Below, in pieces: positions 14,051 to 52,163 of a stretch of DNA of 64,000 nucleotides. The stretch's first letter is position 1; every line of letters begins with the position of its first letter. Source of the DNA: an uncultured Clostridia bacterium (GTDB lineage: Bacteria; Bacillota; Clostridia; TANB77; CAG-508). Location: contig CANROH010000001.1 in NCBI GenBank assembly GCA_947632185.1, positions 15,142 to 79,141 of the forward strand. Reading direction: 5' to 3'. Under the pieces are notes generated by a model. It saw only the letters and a list, made by a program, of their open reading frames with translations. It did no database searches and was not told the origin of the DNA. Made by a program: the position numbers and the translations under genes.

Positions 14051-15340
14051 CTATTTTGTTTTTGGTTTTAAAATTTTTGTGCCTCCCATATATTGCCACA
14101 ATACTTCTGGTACCTTTACACTACCATCTTTTTGATAATTATTTTCAAGGACTGCAATCAATCCTCTTGGACTTGCTACTACAGTATTATTTAAAGTTGC
14201 TACTAAATAATTACCTTTTTCTCCTTTTGCACGAATAGATAAACGTCTAGCCTGTGCATCACCCAAAGTTGAACAACTTCCTACTTCAAAATATTTTTGT
14301 TGACGTGGACTCCAAGCTTCTACATCACAAGATTTTACTTTTAAATCTGCTAAATCTCCACTACAACATTCCAAAGTTCTTACTGGAACATCTAAACTTC
14401 TGAAAAATTCTACAGTATAACTCCACATTTTTCTGTACCAATCCATTTGATCTTCAGGTTTGCAAAGGACTATCATTTCTTGTTTTTCAAATTGATGTAC
14501 TCTATATAAGCCTCTTTCTTCTAATCCATGAGAACCAACTTCTTTTCTAAAACAAGGAGAATATCCAGTTATAGTAATTGGAAGATCTTCTTCTTTTACT
14601 ATCTGTCCTCTAAATTTTCCAATCATTGAATGTTCACTTGTTCCAATTAAATATAAATCTTCTCCTTCTATTTTATACATCATTGCTTCTAGTTCTTCAA
14701 AACTCATTACTCCATTTACAACATCAGATCTTATCATAAATGGTGGTATACAATAAGTAAATCCTTTACCTATCATAAAATCTCTAGCATAAGCAATCAT
14801 AGCTTCATGAAGTCTTGCAACATCTCCTAATAAATAATAAAATCCATTACCACTAGTTCTTCCTGCACTTTCTTTATCTAACCCGCCTAAGCTTTCAATT
14901 ATATCTGCGTGATATGGTATTTCATATTCTGGCACAACTGGTTCACCAAATTTTTCATTTTCTACATTTTCCGTATCATCTTTCCCAATTGGCACAGAAT
15001 CATCCATTATATTTGGGATTTTCATCATTCTTTCTTTAATTTGCTCTTTTAACTCTTCTTCTCTTACTTCATTTTCAGCTAATTTTTCATTTATTTTGTT
15101 AACTTCTTGTTTTTTACTTTCAGCTTCTTCCTTTCTTCCTTGTGCCATTAATCCTCCGATTTCTTTACTAATAGAATTTCTATTCATACGAAGCTCATCA
15201 CACATTAAAGTTAATTCTCTGCTTTCTTTATCTAACTTTAAAACCTCATCTACTAAAATAAGTTTATGATCTTGAAATTTTTTTCTAATATTTTCTTTTA
15301 TCATTTCTGGATTTTCTCTTAAAATTTTAATATCAATCAT
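14051..15340 (-). CDS. serS: serine--tRNA ligase SerS
   Basis: N-terminal coiled-coil and class II motifs (CFRKE, GSCS..DAQARRL). Confidence 0.9.
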   Translation of the reverse strand: MIDIKILRENPEMIKENIRKKFQDHKLILVDEVLKLDKESRELTLMCDELRMNRNSISKEIGGLMAQGRKEEAESKKQEVNKINEKLAENEVREEELKEQIKERMMKIPNIMDDSVPIGKDDTENVENEKFGEPVVPEYEIPYHADIIESLGGLDKESAGRTSGNGFYYLLGDVARLHEAMIAYARDFMIGKGFTYCIPPFMIRSDVVNGVMSFEELEAMMYKIEGEDLYLIGTSEHSMIGKFRGQIVKEEDLPITITGYSPCFRKEVGSHGLEERGLYRVHQFEKQEMIVLCKPEDQMDWYRKMWSYTVEFFRSLDVPVRTLECCSGDLADLKVKSCDVEAWSPRQQKYFEVGSCSTLGDAQARRLSIRAKGEKGNYLVATLNNTVVASPRGLIAVLENNYQKDGSVKVPEVLWQYMGGTKILKPKTK

Positions 15341-15639: not shown

Positions 15640-15890
15640 AATAATATAAAAAAGCCCTTATACGTTAGTATAAGGGCGAATATATCGCGGTACCACCTTT
15701 ATTAATAATTATTTTATAATTATTCTCATTTTATTGCTATAACCTGCAACAACTCGGTCTTAGTTTTCTAAGAAACATTTAAGAGTAGATTTCATAAATT
15801 TTTTTTATCTATTTCCACCTATCATAGACTCTCTATAAAAAAATAATTTATTACTTATCTCTTATCAAACGTTTTCTTTCTTATGGAAAT
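15640..15890 (-). promoter_or_regulatory. T-box riboswitch leader (tRNA-sensing antitermination) upstream of DUF1653-serS
   Basis: Minus strand carries the conserved T-box sequence AAAGGTGGTACCGCG (plus coordinates 15686-15700). It is followed by a terminator hairpin GCCCTTATA-CTAACG-TATAAGGGC and a U-run (15646-15677). An AGAGA motif sits near the 5' end and a candidate UCU specifier is present. Confidence 0.75.
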
Positions 15891-20168: not shown

Positions 20169-21075
20169 TTAGTTATCTATTGTTGCACCTATTATTCCAG
20201 CATCATTTTTAAAAAGTGCAGTAACTATTTTAGGTGTACTATGGTTAAATGTTGAATCTGGTTTATATATTTGTTCAATTAATTTTTTTAATACTGGATG
20301 TCCTTCATAATAAGAAAAACTACCACCAAAACATATTATTTCTGGTTCAAATATATCTATAAGATTGCATATTCCAATTCTTAAGTAATCAATAAATTCA
20401 TTTATATCATTTTGTACCTCATCATGATGCTCAACCATTATATTTTCTCTCAAATATTGGCCTGATATATCACTTCCATCTATATTTAAAGTATTTGTTA
20501 TTCTTGTTTTTAAAGCTTTTATTGAACAATATTTTTCAAAACAACCTTTTTTTCCACAAGCACATGGTATTCCATCTTTTACGATTGTTATATGACCAAA
20601 TTCAAAGCCAGGATATCTTTTGGGTTCTAACAATTTCCCACCTAAAAATGCTGCTCCTCCAATTCCTGTTCCTATGTTTAAAAACAAGCAATCATCATAT
20701 TCTTTCATAGCACCATATACTTTTTCAACTAGTGCTGCACATTTACCATCATTTCTAACTTGTACTTCTAAATTATATTTTTCCATAAGTTTAGATTTTA
20801 AATCAAAATCTTTTAAATCTAAATTACATGCTGTTATTTTACCATCTGTTATAGTGCCTGGAGATGCTACTCCTATTTTTTCTATACTTTCAAAAGTAAT
20901 ATTATTATTAGTTAGTATTTCATTTATTAATTCATCAATTATTCTTAATATAGATTCTTCAATATTATTTCTATCTTCTCCGTGTAATAAATCTATCAAC
21001 AGTGTCTTTAAGGTCAGATTTTTCTACTAATCCTACCCCTATATGACTTCCACCAATATCTATTCCTATTCTCAT
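20169..21075 (-). pseudogene. ROK-family glucokinase gene interrupted by a frameshift near 21000
   Basis: ATG at 21075 with an AGGAGG SD encodes MRIGIDIGGSHIGVGLVEKSDLKDT, then hits a stop at 20971. The ROK body (GTGIGG..CACGKKGCFE) continues in another frame from 20999. Confidence 0.55.
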
Positions 21076-21105: not shown

Positions 21106-23430
21106 TTACATAACCAAAAAACTACCCAAATATATTTGCATATATGGTATTAAAACTATAATTATAAATAATAAAATTGAAATTCCAACAGCTCCATAAG
21201 ATATTTCTGGTAATATTTTTAAAATTCTATCAACTTCTTTTTTTATCTCTTTATCTAGATAATTAATTAGTTCCTGTATAATTTCTCTTGATTGAACATT
21301 AAAACCTTTTTTTAACATTTCTATAGTCATTGGATCTAATAATTCTTCATTTTCAAAAGAAGTAAGCCATGATTTTCCAACATAAATATCATTAATTGAT
21401 TTTTCAATCAAATCTAGCATATATACATTATTTATTACACTTTTGCTTATTTCTAAAGCATCTTGAATTCTGACTTTTGTTTGTAAATTTAGAAATATAC
21501 TACGTATAACTCTTGAAAAATCCACTAAAAACTTTATCCTACCAAATAAAAAATTAGTATACTTAAATTTATCAAACTTGTATTTTCCAGTATCAGTATT
21601 TATTAATTTAATTAATATTGCAACAATTATAGCAATTAATAAAACTACTATATACCAATGTTTTGCAAAATATCTTATTGAATCTATCACAAATAAAGTT
21701 ACTTTAGGCACATAAAAATTATTTCCATATGATGAAAAAACATTTTGAATACTCGGTATTCCAATCAATATTGCTAATATCAAAGTTATAAAAATACCAC
21801 AAAATAATATTATATTTGGTAACAACTCATTTTTTATTGTATTTTTTATTTTTTCTTCATCTTCTAGATATGTTATACAATACTTTAATGATTCATCTAG
21901 TGATTCAGTTAATTCTCCTGTTTTTATTAAATTTACATATATTTTAGGAAATATATTTTCATGTTCTTTCATAGCCTTATAAATATATTTTCCGTTATCA
22001 ACATTTTTTAAAATATCCTTTAGGGCTTCTTTTAAATATGAATTTTCCGTTTTATTTATAATTGTAAGTAATGCATGGCTATTTGTAAAATTTGATTTTT
22101 TTAATAAATAGAAATTCTCAGTAAATTCTCTAATATCTTTCAATCCAACTTTATTTGAAAATTCTATTTCATAATTTTTATCTATATTTATTTTTAATGT
22201 TTTCGTTTTTTTAGATTGAATTACATTTGTATACTTTTTATTATTTAACTTAAAAATTGAAAAATATGATTTTATACTTATTGGCGTCATTCCATTTCTC
22301 TTTATTTTTTTTATACAAGCAATTTTATCCTTTTCTTGCATCTTTATTTTTACAATTTGCCCTTGTGGAGTTATTACTTTACAAATAAAGTTAGACATAT
22401 TTCCTCCTTTCTTTTTTCCATTTATATTCCGTATATCTATTGGAGCAAACTTCGTTAAATTAAATGTTTTATAATATTCGTCTTGAGTATCTCCTAGCTT
22501 TCTCCAAACTCCATAAATACCTTCAAAACTACAATCTGGTGAAACATCGGCTATTTCTTCTTGCACTCTATTTAAATATAAATATTTTCCATTTTGATTT
22601 AAAAATCCCATTCTTATACATCTTTTTCCTGTACCATATCTAAAATAAGCAATATTATCTTTTATGGAGAAATTTGGTATCCAAACATACATATAATTAG
22701 TTATATTTAAAATGTAACCATTATAATTTACTACATTTTTTACTTTACCAGTTTCATCTATAAAAAAATCTTTTAAATTATCTGCATCTTTAGCAAAAAC
22801 TACTACTTTAGCCCATTTTTTTGCATAATAATTAAACCATTCTTTATCATCCTTCGTTGTTGTTACATATTCTTTTGTATTATCTAAATATTTTATTGGA
22901 ATAATATCATAGTCGTAAGTATTTATATTTAAATCTTTAAAGTATTGATCATTAATAATAGGACTATTATACTCTTTTACATTTTCTCTTTCAATTGTAC
23001 TTGAAAGAGTAATATTTTGATTTTGGTTATTTATTTCATAATTAATTATAACTGAAATATTTTTTGCAATATCAAAATCAGAATTAGAATTTTCTATTAT
23101 AATTTTTGCCTCGTAGTCTTCAGGTATACTTGTTCCAAAAAATGTTCCTGTGAAATCTTTTCCAGAAACTATTATATTTAAAGCATTATTTTCAAGTGTT
23201 TTTGAAATACCAATAGACGATATTTGTTCTATATATTGCTCTATATTTTCATAACTTCTTGTTTTTATATTCTCTAAAATATTACTAGCAATTGTTGTTG
23301 CATCAATTTTCTTAGTAATATTTTCTTTGTATAAGCCAATTTCTAAACACATTAAAATAATAATGCTAAATATACATATTGTAATTATTAAAGAAAAAAA
23401 TATTTCTAATGGTACTATCTTCTTTTTCAT
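21106..23430 (-). CDS. pilC: 774-aa in-frame fusion ORF: N-terminal pilin-like or TM-anchored domain (aa 1-344) + complete type IV pilus platform protein PilC/GspF (aa 345-774)
   Basis: The C-terminal 430 aa hold two T2SSF repeats and 3 TM segments. The N-terminus is MKKKIVPLEIFFSLIITICIF plus a ~300-aa globular domain. A strong internal SD (AAAGGAGGA) lies 7 nt before Met345 (ATG at 22398). Confidence 0.8.
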   Translation of the reverse strand: MKKKIVPLEIFFSLIITICIFSIIILMCLEIGLYKENITKKIDATTIASNILENIKTRSYENIEQYIEQISSIGISKTLENNALNIIVSGKDFTGTFFGTSIPEDYEAKIIIENSNSDFDIAKNISVIINYEINNQNQNITLSSTIERENVKEYNSPIINDQYFKDLNINTYDYDIIPIKYLDNTKEYVTTTKDDKEWFNYYAKKWAKVVVFAKDADNLKDFFIDETGKVKNVVNYNGYILNITNYMYVWIPNFSIKDNIAYFRYGTGKRCIRMGFLNQNGKYLYLNRVQEEIADVSPDCSFEGIYGVWRKLGDTQDEYYKTFNLTKFAPIDIRNINGKKKGGNMSNFICKVITPQGQIVKIKMQEKDKIACIKKIKRNGMTPISIKSYFSIFKLNNKKYTNVIQSKKTKTLKINIDKNYEIEFSNKVGLKDIREFTENFYLLKKSNFTNSHALLTIINKTENSYLKEALKDILKNVDNGKYIYKAMKEHENIFPKIYVNLIKTGELTESLDESLKYCITYLEDEEKIKNTIKNELLPNIILFCGIFITLILAILIGIPSIQNVFSSYGNNFYVPKVTLFVIDSIRYFAKHWYIVVLLIAIIVAILIKLINTDTGKYKFDKFKYTNFLFGRIKFLVDFSRVIRSIFLNLQTKVRIQDALEISKSVINNVYMLDLIEKSINDIYVGKSWLTSFENEELLDPMTIEMLKKGFNVQSREIIQELINYLDKEIKKEVDRILKILPEISYGAVGISILLFIIIVLIPYMQIYLGSFLVM

Positions 23431-23502
23431 AACTTTTCCTTATATCTTATATTTATACTAAATTAGGCATATACATAAAAAGTATATGCCTATTATTTTC
23501 AA

Positions 23503-23679
23503 TTATTGAGCAATAGAAGAATTGTCTATAGCATTATTACTATATTCTTTATCTTTAATTTCTAGTTCATAATTATCAATATTTTGTATAACTGTATATG
23601 TTGCAGCAGCTGCTATAAGTAGCAACACTAGCATTAATACAACAAATTTAAGTAAAGTTAACCCTTTTTCAGATCTCAT
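23503..23679 (-). CDS. short type IV pilin-like protein (58 aa) with class III signal MRSEKG|LTLLK
   Basis: GGAG SD. Leader ends in Gly, followed by a 21-residue hydrophobic helix. Position +5 is Lys rather than the usual Glu. Confidence 0.5.
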   Translation of the reverse strand: MRSEKGLTLLKFVVLMLVLLLIAAAATYTVIQNIDNYELEIKDKEYSNNAIDNSSIAQ

Positions 23680-23691
23680 ATTATTACTCCT

Positions 23692-24081
23692 TTATCTTGA
23701 ATTTTTATTTGCTTGAGTAGTATTTGTTTTTTCAGAATTTTGTGGTTCTAATATTGGTTCAGCTTGATTTGTATATTCATCAAATGGATTATCCTTTCCA
23801 CTTTCATAAGAACTTTCTGAAGCATATGATGCTAAATCATTTTGACTTATACTATAAGATTTTAATAAAGAACTTGAATCATCACTTTTAACATCGGTCT
23901 CTGTATTTGAATGAATTTCTTCAAGTGTTTTAACAACATCTTCATCTTGAATATACTCTATCGATACAAGTTTTTGATTATTTGATGAAATAGAATCATA
24001 AAATAATACTATAAGCATAAACATTATTATTACTGCAAGCAATATAGTTATAAATATTTCTTTCAATTTTTTATGCTTCAT
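23692..24081 (-). CDS. single-pass membrane protein with acidic, Ser-rich tail (pilus-cluster accessory, PilP-like?)
   Basis: Start MKHKKLKEIF is preferred because it has an AAGGAG SD. The ORF-track start at 24135 overlaps pilO. Confidence 0.5.
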   Translation of the reverse strand: MKHKKLKEIFITILLAVIIMFMLIVLFYDSISSNNQKLVSIEYIQDEDVVKTLEEIHSNTETDVKSDDSSSLLKSYSISQNDLASYASESSYESGKDNPFDEYTNQAEPILEPQNSEKTNTTQANKNSR

Positions 24082-24100: not shown

Positions 24101-24763
24101 CTAATTTCCTGAATTTTGATTTGATGTGTCAACATTAGTTGTATATGATGTTGGAATTTCAGATAAATTTTTGCTATTTATTGGTATTCTTTGAACAGTA
24201 AAAGTTGCTTGTAAATTTTCTCCACCTTTTTCCATTAAAAAATCATTTATTTCAAAGTTTAATTTTTCATCATCTTCTAAGCTAAATATAAAATTTGTTA
24301 TAGCTGTATATTCTCCTGTTACTGTAATATTTAAATCACACATTACATATTCTGAAGATTTTGAATTTTCATCAGAGTTTTTTACTGTATCAAGTTGAAG
24401 GACAACTCCATTTCGTGTTGCATATCCTCCTATATTAGTTAATAAAAAGTCATAATCATATAATTCCATAGAACCATTTAAATCATTATTTTGTATCTGC
24501 CCATTTGCGACAAGTTTATCATATTGTGATTTTTTATTGTTATATTCTTGAACAGCTGTTTTTAATGCTGATTTCTTTGTATTAAACTCTATATCATTTT
24601 TATAATTTAATTCAGAAATCAAATTGTTTCTTTTAGTATTTGCAACTTGTATTTCTCGATAACTACTTATTTTGTAATTTCCTATTTTAAATCCAAAAAA
24701 CATAATCAAGAAAAATAATAATATAAAAATAATTAACATAAGATTCAATATATATTTTCTCAT
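24101..24763 (-). CDS. pilO: PilO-like type IV pilus biogenesis protein
   Basis: N-terminal TM, coiled-coil, C-terminal PilO-like fold. Overlaps the pilMN stop by 4 nt. Confidence 0.6.
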   Translation of the reverse strand: MRKYILNLMLIIFILLFFLIMFFGFKIGNYKISSYREIQVANTKRNNLISELNYKNDIEFNTKKSALKTAVQEYNNKKSQYDKLVANGQIQNNDLNGSMELYDYDFLLTNIGGYATRNGVVLQLDTVKNSDENSKSSEYVMCDLNITVTGEYTAITNFIFSLEDDEKLNFEINDFLMEKGGENLQATFTVQRIPINSKNLSEIPTSYTTNVDTSNQNSGN

Positions 24764-26349
24764 TTCAAATCCCCCTCTATGGTAATTTGAACTAATGAAT
24801 CACTTTTTGTACTTGGCGTTGACTTAATATTTGCAAGTGTTCCATCTGATTTTATTGCCGCAAGAAAATAACCTAATTGTTCATATTTCTCTGAAGTTGC
24901 TTGTATAACAATATGATTATTCTCTACATTTTCTATAGATATGATTTGGACTTGTTTAGGTATTATCGTCATTATTTTCTTTAGCATATTTGGAATTGCA
25001 TCTTTTGAAATAACTCTACTATTTTTTGAATTATTATTTGCTTCACTTAATGAATCTACACTTCCTATAAGTGAATTATAAGCATTTATATAACTTTCTA
25101 TTTCAGAAAGTTCACTATCCATCTTTTCTATCTGCTTACTAGATTCTTGAAGTTTTGCTTGAGCTTCTTGTATTTTTAAATTAGTTTTATTCAAAATATA
25201 TCCACTAGCAATTGAAAATCCAATAATAGCAATAATACAACATCTTATTGCTCTTAATACAAGTTTTTCTTTAGCATTAAAAGGCTTTTTAAATTCTGAT
25301 CTTATTCTATTAATATTAAATTTTTCATTAGAATGAACAATACTATTAATTTTAGAGCTTGGTGCAAAATTCAAATCTTTATTTATATATTCTAATCCAT
25401 CTAAAGCAAGTGCAATTGCTGAATTAACTTCTATATATTCTTTTTTAGATATATCAAAAAGTTCTTGAGATACAAAAAATGGTTTCAATATTTTACATTT
25501 TGTATTCTTAAATTCTTCTTGAAAATACAAGTCTATATTACCAATAGTTGCACCAAGACCAGTTATATATATGGTATCTATTTTTTCTTTAAAATTACTA
25601 AATACTCTTTGTGCTTCTCTAATAATTCTTGATATAGTAGGTATTATTAAATCTATATATTCATTTTTATTTTCATCAATATTATCATCATTTATAATAG
25701 TAGTTTTAAAAACATTATACGTTTCTTTCCATGATAATCCTAGTTTATGAATTTTTTCAATTATGCTTTCTAGTCCAGCATCTAAAATATCAACTCTGTT
25801 TATTTGTTTATTAAATATAGTAGTAATTTTAGTTTCATTTTCTATATTTATAATAGCAATATTTTCATTATCATTAATTTCAACAAGATTTGTTATACTA
25901 GTTGAAATTGGTGAAATAGAATATAATTTATAATCTGACAATATTTTTGAGTTTGAATAAATTTCACCTTTATTTGCAGATATATATAGAACTTTATATT
26001 TATCACGATCTTCTTCATTATTTACTAATATATATCTTGATTCTAGAGATTTTTTTGCATATCCTTTATCTTGGCATAACATTTCAAATTCTATATTTAG
26101 AGCTTTTGTAATATCCTTTCTTCCAAGTCCTGAAAAAACATTAAAATAATTATATAATTCATTTTTAATGTTAATACTAATAGGCGTTTTTTGGCTATTT
26201 GTCTGATTAATAACTTTTTTCAAAGTCAATTCTAAATTATCAAAAACTTCTGTATTAAAGCTCTCTACTTTAAATGTATTATTGTCTTTTCTCAATTTAG
26301 CATATTTTATTAGGTTTTTATCAATAAAAATACCTAAACAACTTGACAT
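24760..26349 (-). CDS. pilM: PilM-PilN fusion protein (actin-like ATPase domain + TM/PilN domain)
   Basis: MSSCLGIFIDKN PilM N-terminus with an AGAGGGG SD, and a C-terminal TM plus coiled-coil PilN-like region. The ORF-track start at 26472 has no SD. Confidence 0.8.
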   Translation of the reverse strand: MSSCLGIFIDKNLIKYAKLRKDNNTFKVESFNTEVFDNLELTLKKVINQTNSQKTPISINIKNELYNYFNVFSGLGRKDITKALNIEFEMLCQDKGYAKKSLESRYILVNNEEDRDKYKVLYISANKGEIYSNSKILSDYKLYSISPISTSITNLVEINDNENIAIINIENETKITTIFNKQINRVDILDAGLESIIEKIHKLGLSWKETYNVFKTTIINDDNIDENKNEYIDLIIPTISRIIREAQRVFSNFKEKIDTIYITGLGATIGNIDLYFQEEFKNTKCKILKPFFVSQELFDISKKEYIEVNSAIALALDGLEYINKDLNFAPSSKINSIVHSNEKFNINRIRSEFKKPFNAKEKLVLRAIRCCIIAIIGFSIASGYILNKTNLKIQEAQAKLQESSKQIEKMDSELSEIESYINAYNSLIGSVDSLSEANNNSKNSRVISKDAIPNMLKKIMTIIPKQVQIISIENVENNHIVIQATSEKYEQLGYFLAAIKSDGTLANIKSTPSTKSDSLVQITIEGDLK

Positions 26350-31479: not shown

Positions 31480-31811
31480 TTCGGAACAATGGTTATTTCA
31501 TAAATTTTTAAATTAGTAAATTCACCCAAGTCACTAATACGCCAACCTTTATTTTTAATTTCAGTGTCAATCTCAGAAAAAAGTTGGGAATCTAATTCAT
31601 GCAAATCGGGGTCGAAATACTTAAATAATGTTTTAGTTTCCCATCCAACTATTCCTGATTGATTTGAAATAAGGATTTTCAGATTTTTTAAATCTGCTTT
31701 TTGGTAATCAAAACCAATAAAAGCTTGATCTAAAGCATCTGAAATGGCTACCTCCCATAAATTCCGAAAATACTCTTTACTTCTGTCCTCAAAATCTGCA
31801 AATGATTTCAT
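31461..31811 (-). CDS. hypothetical protein (116 aa) in elevated-GC segment
   Basis: Start MKSFADF with a perfect AGGAGG SD. GC is about 33% against a 25% background. Confidence 0.6.
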   Translation of the reverse strand: MKSFADFEDRSKEYFRNLWEVAISDALDQAFIGFDYQKADLKNLKILISNQSGIVGWETKTLFKYFDPDLHELDSQLFSEIDTEIKNKGWRISDLGEFTNLKIYEITIVPNQKKKE

Positions 31812-32041: not shown

Positions 32042-32542
32042 ATGAATTATGTCGTTGAATCAGAAAGAATACGTCTTCGGAAATTCCAACCTGATGATGT
32101 CATGAATTACTACAAAATGACTCGGGATCCGGCAATACAAAAATATGTACCTTATGCATGTGATGAAACTATTGAAGAAACTGCAGAAAGTGTTGCAATA
32201 TATTGTAATGGTGACTTCATTAATGATTTTTACATTGTTATTGAAGAAAAAAGTACTAAACAAATGATTGGAGCAATTTTTGCAAACAGAATGACAAAAG
32301 ACTCTACAAAAGAAGTTTCTATAATGACTAGCGCACAGTTTAGAAAAAAAGGAGTTATGAAGGAAGCAATAAAATTATTCATTTCATCGCTTCCTCCAAG
32401 GACTAAACTTTCTTTTTCTATAGAGTCTAGTAATATTGCTTCTATAAAAACTGTAACTTCAATCGAAAATATTATAGAAATACTTTCTTATAGTGATTTA
32501 GAAACAGGCACATTATATAGACATTTCATATATTTTTGTTAA
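32042..32542 (+). CDS. GNAT-family N-acetyltransferase (RimJ/RimL-like)
   Basis: IRLRKFQPDD N-terminus and the GNAT fold motif. Elevated GC. Confidence 0.8.
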   Translation: MNYVVESERIRLRKFQPDDVMNYYKMTRDPAIQKYVPYACDETIEETAESVAIYCNGDFINDFYIVIEEKSTKQMIGAIFANRMTKDSTKEVSIMTSAQFRKKGVMKEAIKLFISSLPPRTKLSFSIESSNIASIKTVTSIENIIEILSYSDLETGTLYRHFIYFC

Positions 32543-37345: not shown

Positions 37346-37518
37346 ATTTTCCTCCTAATACTCTTTTATCCTAATTGTATTATCATTTTATTTATATATT
37401 CATTAGAATATATAAATTTTTCTTAGGGAAATCAGTGTTTTTTTATTGAAAATGCTTGATTTTTTTCTAATTTTGTTAGATAATATATATGTATATTATT
37501 GTAAAAGGATGTTTTATT

Positions 37519-39870
37519 ATGATAATGAAATATATAGATATTTTTTTAAAGAAATTAAAAACAGATAGAAATACATTCGCAACATACATACTAACTTTAA
37601 TTTCAATATACATATGTGTAGATAGATTAGTTGAAGTATTGCTTATAATATTTTCTGGTTTATCTGTTTCTTATTGGGGACCTATAAAATATACTCTTGC
37701 AATGGCATGCCCAATATTTGCATTTTATTTTTCATTTGCATCAAAATTTGTAGAAGATAAATATACTAAACTTTCATTTTTTTATACATATGTAGTAGCA
37801 CTGTATATAATATTTATGTCAATGATTGTACAATGGATTAATCACATTGGTTGGTTACTTTTATTTTCTGTACCAAATTATTCTTATATAATTTCTACAT
37901 TTATGGATTTAATAAAACCTGCATTTTCAGCATTTGCATGGTATATTCCAATATGTAGCTTTTTCCCATTAGTAAAGTGGATTTTATTAACAGTTGATGA
38001 TACTTTATATATTAAAGAATCTATTTGGGATTATGGTGGAATAGATTTATCTGATAAATCTATTGGTATGGGACCTTATACTTGTGAAATGTTTTTATGT
38101 AAAGATTATGAAACTGGAAAATCTATAGTAACACCTGAATCTAGGAGATTTGAATCAACATTAATTGTTGGTGTTTCTGGATCTGGAAAAACTTCCATGA
38201 TGTTTGAACCAATGATTGCAAGAGACCTAGAGAAAAAATATTTCTTTAGAGAAACTTCTAAAGAATTAGCATTCACTGCATTAAAAACAAATATTGCTAC
38301 TTTAAATTCACCTTACTCTAATGACTACATAAATGAAAACTTTAGTTTAAATATGATTAGTCCAGTTTTAAGTAAAGAAAAGATATTTAAAGCTTATTTT
38401 TCAAAATTAATTTATAATTATAATGGTGCTAATACTATTTATAAAAATCTTGGAATTACATATATGGCACCTGATTATGAATCAATTACTCATATAAAAG
38501 ATGTTGCTAGCAATTTTGGTATAAAATATAATGTAGTAGATCCAAGTGATAATTCTTCAATTGGGCTAAATCCATTTACTTATGAAGATCCAATAAAAAC
38601 TTCTATAGCAATTTCTTCTATATTAAAGAGAATGTATGCTTCTGGATCTGTTCATGAGGCTGGTTCAGAAGAAGAAGCATTTATGCAAAACATAGTTACT
38701 CAAGCAATAGAAAATTTAGTATTAATGTTAAAAGAAGTTTATCCTAGATTACATGATGGTTTACTACCAAATCTAGAAGATTTATTAGATTTATTAAATG
38801 ATTTCACTTTAATTGAAAAAATGGCTGAACAGATGAAACAGTTCCCAGATTTAGCTGAAAAATATAAAATACAATTAGGATATTTTAAGAAAACTTTCTA
38901 TAAAACAGCACATGACAAGGAAACTACAGAAAAATATTTACAGGCATCTGCAGCACAACTTGAAAATCTACTTAGATATCCTGGTGTAAGAAATATTTTA
39001 TGTAATAGAACAAATAATATAAATTATGATAAAGCATTAGAATCAGGTGATATTACTTTAGTATGTACTAGACGTGGAGATTTAGGAGCTAGTGTTCATA
39101 AAGCATTTGGTCTATTCTTCCTATTACTTATGCAGCAATCTGTTCTATCTAGACCAGGAAATGAAAAAACTAGAATTCCACACTTCTTATATATAGATGA
39201 ATTTCCACCTTTCATTTGCAAACCTACTGAAGATATATTTACATTATATAGAAAATATAGAGTTGGAACAATTATATCATCTCAAAACTTATCACAATTT
39301 GGAATAAATAATGATTATAATTATAGACAAACAATTATGGCAAACTGTACAACAAAAATAGTATTTGGTAATAACACCCCAGAAGATAACGAATGGTGGG
39401 AAAAAGAATTTGGTGATAAGAGACGTTGGGTATTTACACATGATTATGATACAGATAAAGGAAAATACTCTGATACTTATAAATCAATTAAGTGGGAATG
39501 GATTAAGAACTTTAAAGCTGGAAAAATCCAAGCAATGAAATTCAAAACAGTTATTTATAAAACAAAGGATTTAAAAGGAAAGAATCTTGTTGGTCAAGCA
39601 AAAATTGATTTCTTGGAATCAAGATATAAAGAACCACAAAAGATTAAATCTTTTGACTTTAGTAGATTTGGAGGAGCTGTAAATCCAGCTACTACTGAAG
39701 AACATAAATCAAGACCTAAATTTAATTTGAATAATATTGATTTTCATAGTAATCCAAATAACCCAAATGATATGGATCCAATTCAAATGAATACATCTGA
39801 TGAAAAATATAAATTTAATAATGAAGATGCAATAACATCTTACAATTCAAATAATGATTCAAATGAATAA
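37519..39870 (+). CDS. divergent TraG/TraD/VirD4-family (type IV coupling protein-like) P-loop ATPase with 5 N-terminal TM helices
   Basis: Walker A GVSGSGKTS at ~aa 227 and Walker B HFLYIDEF about 340 aa later, so the nucleotide-binding domain is split by an alpha-domain insertion. SSQNLSQFG Q-motif and an Asn/Asp-rich C-tail are present. Start moved to MIMKYI, which has an AAAGGA SD. Confidence 0.7.
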   Translation: MIMKYIDIFLKKLKTDRNTFATYILTLISIYICVDRLVEVLLIIFSGLSVSYWGPIKYTLAMACPIFAFYFSFASKFVEDKYTKLSFFYTYVVALYIIFMSMIVQWINHIGWLLLFSVPNYSYIISTFMDLIKPAFSAFAWYIPICSFFPLVKWILLTVDDTLYIKESIWDYGGIDLSDKSIGMGPYTCEMFLCKDYETGKSIVTPESRRFESTLIVGVSGSGKTSMMFEPMIARDLEKKYFFRETSKELAFTALKTNIATLNSPYSNDYINENFSLNMISPVLSKEKIFKAYFSKLIYNYNGANTIYKNLGITYMAPDYESITHIKDVASNFGIKYNVVDPSDNSSIGLNPFTYEDPIKTSIAISSILKRMYASGSVHEAGSEEEAFMQNIVTQAIENLVLMLKEVYPRLHDGLLPNLEDLLDLLNDFTLIEKMAEQMKQFPDLAEKYKIQLGYFKKTFYKTAHDKETTEKYLQASAAQLENLLRYPGVRNILCNRTNNINYDKALESGDITLVCTRRGDLGASVHKAFGLFFLLLMQQSVLSRPGNEKTRIPHFLYIDEFPPFICKPTEDIFTLYRKYRVGTIISSQNLSQFGINNDYNYRQTIMANCTTKIVFGNNTPEDNEWWEKEFGDKRRWVFTHDYDTDKGKYSDTYKSIKWEWIKNFKAGKIQAMKFKTVIYKTKDLKGKNLVGQAKIDFLESRYKEPQKIKSFDFSRFGGAVNPATTEEHKSRPKFNLNNIDFHSNPNNPNDMDPIQMNTSDEKYKFNNEDAITSYNSNNDSNE

Positions 39871-51964: not shown

Positions 51965-52163
51965 CCGAATTCCCTTCTTTTTTTAAATAACATATAATAA
52001 TTATTATAATATTATATGTTAGATAAATAATATTGTCAAAGTCTAATATTAATATTATAAATATGTTTTTTATTTTTGTAAATATTAACAATTTTTCCAT
52101 AAGAAACATAAACTTTATTATGACAATTAAATTGTTAAAATAATTTGAAAGGAAGTTTATATT

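Follow-up and report, generated by a model that had tools for sequence, protein, structure and literature searches.

The DNA analysed here is a stretch of 64,000 nucleotides from an uncultured Clostridia bacterium, hereafter the window. Its minus strand carries, at 21106..23430, a single open reading frame (ORF) of 774 codons with no in-frame stop, in which a pilin-like part of 333 residues with a transmembrane (TM) anchor is followed by a linker of 11 codons and a complete PilC starting at Met345. The question raised by this locus is whether such a frame encodes one protein or two. The first-pass annotation had pointed out that no stop codon separates the pilin-like domain from PilC, which our reading of the frame confirms, and had offered three readings: independent initiation of PilC within the longer frame, recent loss of a stop codon joining a minor-pilin-like gene to pilC, or a processed polyprotein. 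In our analysis the locus is best explained as two genes that have been joined by one extra base, whether by an indel introduced in sequencing or assembly or by a very recent mutation, with PilC initiated independently, and we give this reading a probability of about 85%. The 774-residue fusion has no standing as a biological architecture; it results from an accident of one base, whether technical or mutational, in this record alone. The coordinates of the features discussed below are collected in Table 1.

Table 1. Features of the long ORF and of the surrounding pilus cluster, in window coordinates
Feature	Coordinates	Strand	Basis
Pilin-like gene proper, codons 1–333	22432..23430	−	53–61% identity, full length, to stand-alone syntenic proteins of 332–336 aa
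Read-through linker, 11 codons (CGG AAT ATA AAT GGA AAA AAG AAA GGA GGA AAT)	22399..22431	−	
Shine-Dalgarno site of pilC, GAAAGGAGG, inside the long ORF	22403..22411	−	9-mer count and conservation
Complete pilC, T2SSF-family platform protein, 430 aa	21106..22398	−	Pfam, NCBIfam, orthologue alignment
ROK-family kinase gene, one-base frameshift	20169..21075	−	tblastn and codon alignment
Conserved hairpin in the spacer that separates the 58-aa pilin-like gene from the long ORF	23464..23492	−	Terminator-like scan
pilM-N fusion	24760..26349	−	Synteny with L001–L008; weak PilM match
pilO-like gene	24101..24763	−	Synteny with L001–L008; weak PilO match
Gene for 129-aa bitopic protein	23692..24081	−	Synteny with L001–L008
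Gene for 58-aa pilin-like protein	23503..23679	−	Synteny with L001–L008

The two proteins and the junction between them

The T2SSF domain (Pfam PF00482) is found in the C-terminal half only, in two stretches (7.8e-23) that constitute two T2SSF copies. Residues 345–774 align end to end with stand-alone PilC orthologues, matching their residues 1–431 of 433, and the identity to orthologues of 426–436 residues is 43–64% over the entire length. The GspF model of NCBIfam (TIGR02120) matches this half at 7e-43, with residues 9–422 aligned to positions 6–397 of 401. This alignment is collinear and spans nearly the whole model, with a score of 147 bits against a cut-off of 424, and for PilC models the two values are 111 and 700 bits; the C-terminal protein is a member of the family, not an equivalog. 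Hydropathy places three TM segments in the PilC half, at approximately residues 537–562, 590–610, and 745–768, and the Lys and Arg residues flanking them fit, for the 430-residue protein taken alone, the N-in orientation established for PilC/GspF, with both large domains in the cytoplasm.

The 774-residue form departs from this arrangement, which only the 430-residue PilC on its own displays. An additional N-in anchor upstream would put both large PilC domains outside the cell, and the fused topology is in conflict with the positive-inside pattern of PilC because the preceding anchor would invert PilC. The topological objection raised in the first-pass annotation is thereby borne out: the full ORF has one N-terminal TM segment ahead of the three PilC segments, a pattern incompatible with a single protein.

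The C-terminal protein resembles the PilC/GspF platform proteins of clostridial type IV pilus systems: it has two T2SSF repeats and three TM segments, aligns with the GspF/PilC models over their full length, has a ribosome-binding site of its own, and is encoded in a cluster of pilM-N, pilO, and pilin-like genes. It differs from them in that no stop separates pilC from the upstream gene, in that its scores fall far under the NCBIfam equivalog cut-offs, and in its neighbourhood, since neither a PilB/GspE partner ATPase among the large window ORFs scanned or the 17-kb syntenic loci, nor pilB, pilT, or pilD among the window ORFs scanned or in those loci, was found. The PilB/GspE ATPase may be encoded elsewhere in the genome.

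The N-terminal half has a single hydrophobic segment near its N-terminus (residues ~10–31), which follows the leader MKKK. An AF2 model of this half (pLDDT 86.6) predicts a 52-residue helix (residues 5–56), a β-sheet, and then a second β-rich domain. Searches of Pfam, NCBIfam, and PDB sequences gave no match for this half, and Foldseek gave no significant one in the PDB. Class III signals of Gram-positive pilins, as used by PilFind, follow the rule (A/G)X4(D/E) (PMC3244431). With a slash at the cleavage position, the N-half reads MKKK/IVPLE and does not conform to this rule, having Lys at −1 and Glu at +5. Its close orthologues likewise keep the Glu at +5 and have Lys, Arg, or Thr at −1, never Gly or Ala, and cleavage by a prepilin peptidase is therefore doubtful in the clade of the window. 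Distant homologues retrieved with the family profile have canonical class III signals of the pattern G/[ILVA]T[GA]xD, for example, ...QKG/LTGVDIVV and ...NRG/ITGIDLAV.

The N-half thus shares with type IV minor pilins (PMC3244431) a leader that is short and basic, a hydrophobic N-terminal helix (~50 residues) that precedes a β-sheet in the model, a Glu at the +5 equivalent, canonical signals in its distant homologues, and a location in a pilus cluster, its gene lying between the pilM-N, pilO, and small pilin-like genes and pilC in 9/9 loci. It differs from them at position −1 and in the lack of any database or structural match. The earlier description of this half as pilin-like or TM-anchored holds insofar as distant members of the family have prepilin signals, but strict membership in the class of cleavable prepilins is not justified. 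Judged from its sequence, the N-half is a pilin-like protein with a degenerate signal that is possibly left uncleaved.

Some distant members of the family are larger. Two of them, P0354 and P0363 (576 and 545 residues), have extra C-terminal modules, and weak FGE-sulfatase-like matches (E about 0.002–0.003) were seen in two distant members with such modules. Two very large proteins, P0359 (3713 residues) and P0384 (1385 residues), contain 4–6 repeats that match profile positions ~176–264, so the β-domain of the family also occurs outside pilins.

At the junction, the codons GCT CCA ATA GAT ATA lead directly into the linker (Table 1), which is followed by the ATG of Met345 at 22398..22396. Homology of the N-half to its orthologues continues as far as ...P-I-D-I, and the orthologous stop falls at the position of CGG/AAT in the window. 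If one base is removed, the sequence reads ...ATA GGA ATA TAA, with TAA at 22424..22422; in this frame, one base later, the product has 335 residues (...P-I-D-I-G-I-stop) and the spacer 23 nt, much as in the orthologues. The frame as deposited happens to run without a stop through the 33 nt ahead of pilC, whose phase it shares. An extra base near 22429–22431 would therefore suffice to move the pilin-like gene off its TAA frame and into the frame of pilC, although the same ORF could also have arisen if the stop was substituted and the spacer was short. By sequence, the linker appears to be the former end of the pilin-like gene plus the intergenic spacer. Residues 335–344 of this tail have pLDDT values <50 in the AF2 model of the N-half, and the tail is predicted to be disordered.

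The former spacer holds a strong ribosome-binding site. The 9-mer GAAAGGAGG occurs twice in 64 kb compared to 0.25 expected occurrences, and together with the preceding A it provides 10 nt complementary to the 3' end of 16S rRNA. The spacing of 7 nt upstream of Met345 that had been given for this site is roughly right when counted from the middle of the motif, but GGAGG actually ends 4 nt before the ATG. The motif AGAAAGGAGG is kept in front of pilC in six syntenic loci (L001, L002, L003, L005, L006, and L007), and L008 has AGGAAAGGAGG in its place. Moreover, the intergenic ribosome-binding site of L001 recurs without a mismatch in the 19 nt immediately 5' of the Met345 ATG, and L005 and L006 match the last 15–16 of these positions. 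The independent initiation of PilC that had been suggested earlier is thus well supported, and from the conservation of this site we infer that PilC would be initiated at Met345 whether the extra base is an artefact or a mutation.

Comparison with relatives and a second lesion

If the fusion were an established architecture, it should recur, and it does not. Searching with the full ORF gave 161 matching proteins, and the only one of 774 residues is the identical NCBI entry; the remaining PilC relatives (~160, none of them fused) have 425–459 residues and cover 55% of the query. With the N-half as query, 129/129 relatives stand alone, at 290–348 residues and without any Pfam domain. A deeper profile search of 1.84 billion cluster representatives yielded 310 members of the N-half family, mostly of 300–400 residues, with a PilC fusion in 0/310; the five relatives of 545–646 residues that were checked among these representatives contain no T2SSF domain.

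The gene order of the locus is shared by eight syntenic loci (L001–L008): SpoVA, FBPase, pilM-N, a pilO-like gene, genes for proteins of ~170, ~55, and ~335 residues, pilC (~430 residues), ROK (~300 residues), and RNase J. Flanking housekeeping proteins in these loci are 80–88% identical to those of the window and pilus proteins 43–67%, which identifies them as genus-level relatives. A scan of genome contigs for the same species returned a genus-level relative only (L004), and a metagenome scan with a degenerate motif added one further orthologue with separate genes (L008). An exact look-up of the 774-residue protein, FBPase, and PilO on other contigs gave no conspecific sequence.

In all eight loci a stop lies between the pilin-like gene and pilC, and in none of them is the ORF continuous. 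The ~335-residue gene ends with TAA or TAG 4–5 codons past an invariant Pro, followed by a spacer of 27–89 nt that holds the ribosome-binding site and leads to the ATG of pilC. The phase between the two genes differs among the loci, taking the values 0, 1, and 2, which indicates that there is no selection for an in-frame arrangement. The stop is missing from the present record only, in agreement with the earlier suggestion that loss of a stop had recently joined a minor-pilin-like gene to pilC.

The gene directly downstream of pilC, which encodes a ROK-family kinase, is broken as well. By tblastn, ROK residues 1–32, including the phosphate-binding motif MRIGIDIGGSHIG, lie at 21075–20980, and residues 33–299, the remaining 267, lie in the next frame at 20978–20178. 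Comparison with L001, L002, and L007 shows this split as well, with the two frames meeting at about the same point, and against L006 only residues 33–299 are matched. The break falls at ACA CGG A, with CGG at 20982..20980. In a codon alignment the window has ACA-CGGA-GAA where the orthologues have ACA-GAA/CAA/AAA-GAA, that is, one extra base, and the lesion is located to 20979–20982. The orthologues are intact, with 299–312 residues. Both lesions thus sit on the pentamer ACGGA, 1.45 kb apart. Apart from its lesion, each of the two genes is as conserved as its intact orthologues and has no further damage, and all 11 remaining genes of the shared region are intact.

The pentamer itself occurs 14 times on the minus strand in 64 kb. 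Because 16/18 ACGGA sites in the window are in intact genes or outside genes, an error process would not be strictly driven by the motif. A candidate third frame break at CGGA was rejected: an ORF does become longer when the C at 51967 is deleted, but its 86 additional codons are A+T-rich promoter and leader sequence and non-coding. Scars of recombination or of a cassette flanking pilC were likewise discarded, as the two lesion sites have no likeness beyond the pentamer and their local alignment score is below the random mean.

Both lesions also create a codon that is hardly used here. CGG accounts for 0.13 per 1000 codons in the window, or 0.4% of Arg codons. In the related loci it is absent from all core genes and confined to G+C-rich accessory inserts, and the CGG at the junction is for this reason not an evolved codon. 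Examples of such inserts are one beside the zeta-toxin gene in L005 and a 167-residue gene in L002. Within credible genes of the window, in-frame CGG occurs at 31766, 32078, and 32123, in two small accessory genes.

Origin of the extra base

On the reading that we prefer, namely two genes joined by one extra base, the locus would encode a type IV pilin-like protein of ~335 residues, anchored in the membrane with its N-terminus inside and its body outside the cytoplasm, and a separate PilC platform protein of 430 residues that would be made from its own strong ribosome-binding site and the ATG at 22398. Both the identity of the extra base and its technical or mutational origin are inferred. The next gene is broken by an identical one-base lesion in that pentamer, and so a real mutation is no more likely than an indel introduced in sequencing or assembly. 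We lean slightly towards an artefact, because the two lesions are of the same type and lie on the same pentamer within 1.5 kb, because both create a codon avoided by the clade, and because both genes are otherwise as conserved as their intact orthologues. The locus resembles the spurious fusions and split genes that single-base indels produce in draft and metagenome-assembled genomes: the architecture is seen in a single record, the orthologous structure returns when one base is taken out, and a second one-base lesion is present in an adjacent conserved gene. It differs from them in that the window is otherwise clean, and not a generally error-rich assembly. The first-pass annotation was accurate in its description, its topological objection, and its proposal of stop loss, but it had not weighed this ordinary cause, one extra base accompanied by a second lesion in ROK.

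A genuine recent frameshift or stop loss in the lineage is a serious possibility, to which we assign rather less than even odds. It would give a 774-residue chimera that could not adopt the PilC topology and would probably be degraded, while the internal start would supply functional PilC, no free pilin-like protein would be left, ROK would be inactivated, and this part of the chromosome would be decaying. The deposited sequence does show a continuous ORF, and the clean assembly of the rest of the window implies a low rate of indel errors. The fast evolution of the pilus proteins (43–67% identity versus 80–88% for housekeeping proteins) is also compatible with relaxed or diversifying selection. 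Against this, two independent insertions of the same kind in the same pentamer, 1.45 kb apart, would be needed, both would have created a G+C-rich CGG codon in a genome of 25% G+C, and the two affected genes are as conserved as intact orthologues and have no other lesions.

Shifting of the ribosome into the +1 frame at rare codons exists, and both extra bases could in principle be real and be rescued in translation. CGG would then be unassigned or "hungry", and ribosomes pausing at A-CGG-A would shift +1 onto GGA, giving a normal pilin-like protein of 335 residues (...IDIGI-stop) and a full-length ROK, and no fusion protein. A shift exactly at CGG restores an orthologue-like product at both sites, and the pairing of a slow zero-frame codon with an abundant +1 codon, a feature of programmed +1 frameshifting, is present: native genes of the window and of its relatives hardly contain CGG, and GGA, at 34.5 per 1000, is the commonest Gly codon in the window. 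Loss of CGG has been documented in Mycoplasma capricolum, which also has a genome of 25% G+C (PMC4695839). We nevertheless regard this explanation as very unlikely. No orthologue has CGG or an equivalent at either position, so that no shift site is conserved, and no stimulatory element was identified. The three other in-frame CGGs are in apparently real accessory genes, where Arg fits, as in the LRLRK motif of the acetyltransferase at 32078. Moreover, both sites lie within 1.5 kb, a clustering that a genome-wide neutral process would not predict. The window contains no tRNA genes. If it were true, this explanation would describe a pair of chromosomal genes naturally rescued by hungry-codon frameshifting, and it would mark the loss of a codon from a clade of gut Clostridia; the two CGG sites, if real, would allow an inexpensive check on whether this clade still decodes CGG.

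An evolved single polypeptide, or a polyprotein cleaved into a pilin-like protein and PilC, is next to excluded, having the uninterrupted ORF alone in its favour against an architecture absent from every relative of either half, a linker made of a former spacer with a ribosome-binding site and a codon unused by the clade, a topology incompatible with PilC, and no protease site or known precedent that we could find; the processed polyprotein considered in the first-pass annotation accordingly finds no support.

The pilus cluster and its setting

The pilus cluster is located between the FBPase and ROK genes. The fused protein of PilM-PilN type has about 529 residues when counted from its likely start, MSSCLG, the listed ORF having 570, and gives only a weak TIGR01175 match and no Pfam match. 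The small pilin-like protein upstream of the long ORF (51–59 residues across the loci) has a canonical-looking ...KG/ cleavage site in 6/7 loci compared, the version in L007 being without the KG motif. Type IV pilins have Glu at +5; five of the six KG-bearing loci have Lys or Arg at this position and L006 has Thr. The neighbouring proteins of 335 and ~130–200 residues show the reverse, keeping the Glu and having no Gly at −1.

A hairpin is found 3' of the small pilin-like gene in 7/7 loci folded. It consists of TAGGCATAT[G/A]CA, a loop, and TGTATATGCCTA, followed by ATTTAGTAT, and is conserved in both sequence and structure. The stem sequence is present in six orthologous loci (L001 at ~2908–2945, L002, L005, L006, L007, and L008), and the folding energies of the whole spacers in the loci with the hairpin range from −15.6 to −21.2 kcal/mol. 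It looks like an attenuator, a terminator, or a 3' stabiliser after an abundantly expressed, major-pilin-like gene.

Elsewhere in the window, a T-box leader (15669..15876, minus strand, 97.9 bits) precedes the gene for seryl-tRNA synthetase (14051..15340). A protein of 793 residues (37489..39870, plus strand) has a TraG-D_C domain, as in TraD/TraG coupling proteins, in an otherwise housekeeping region, and may be a remnant or part of an integrated conjugative element.

For annotation, the analysis means that the public 774-residue "T2SSF family protein" is to be read as two genes and the adjacent ROK gene as frameshifted. Neither should be used to seed claims of a new pilin-PilC fusion architecture. 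The family of ~335-residue pilin-like proteins encoded at this locus is unannotated, and the locus itself illustrates well what a divergent pilus cluster with degenerate prepilin signals looks like in Clostridia.
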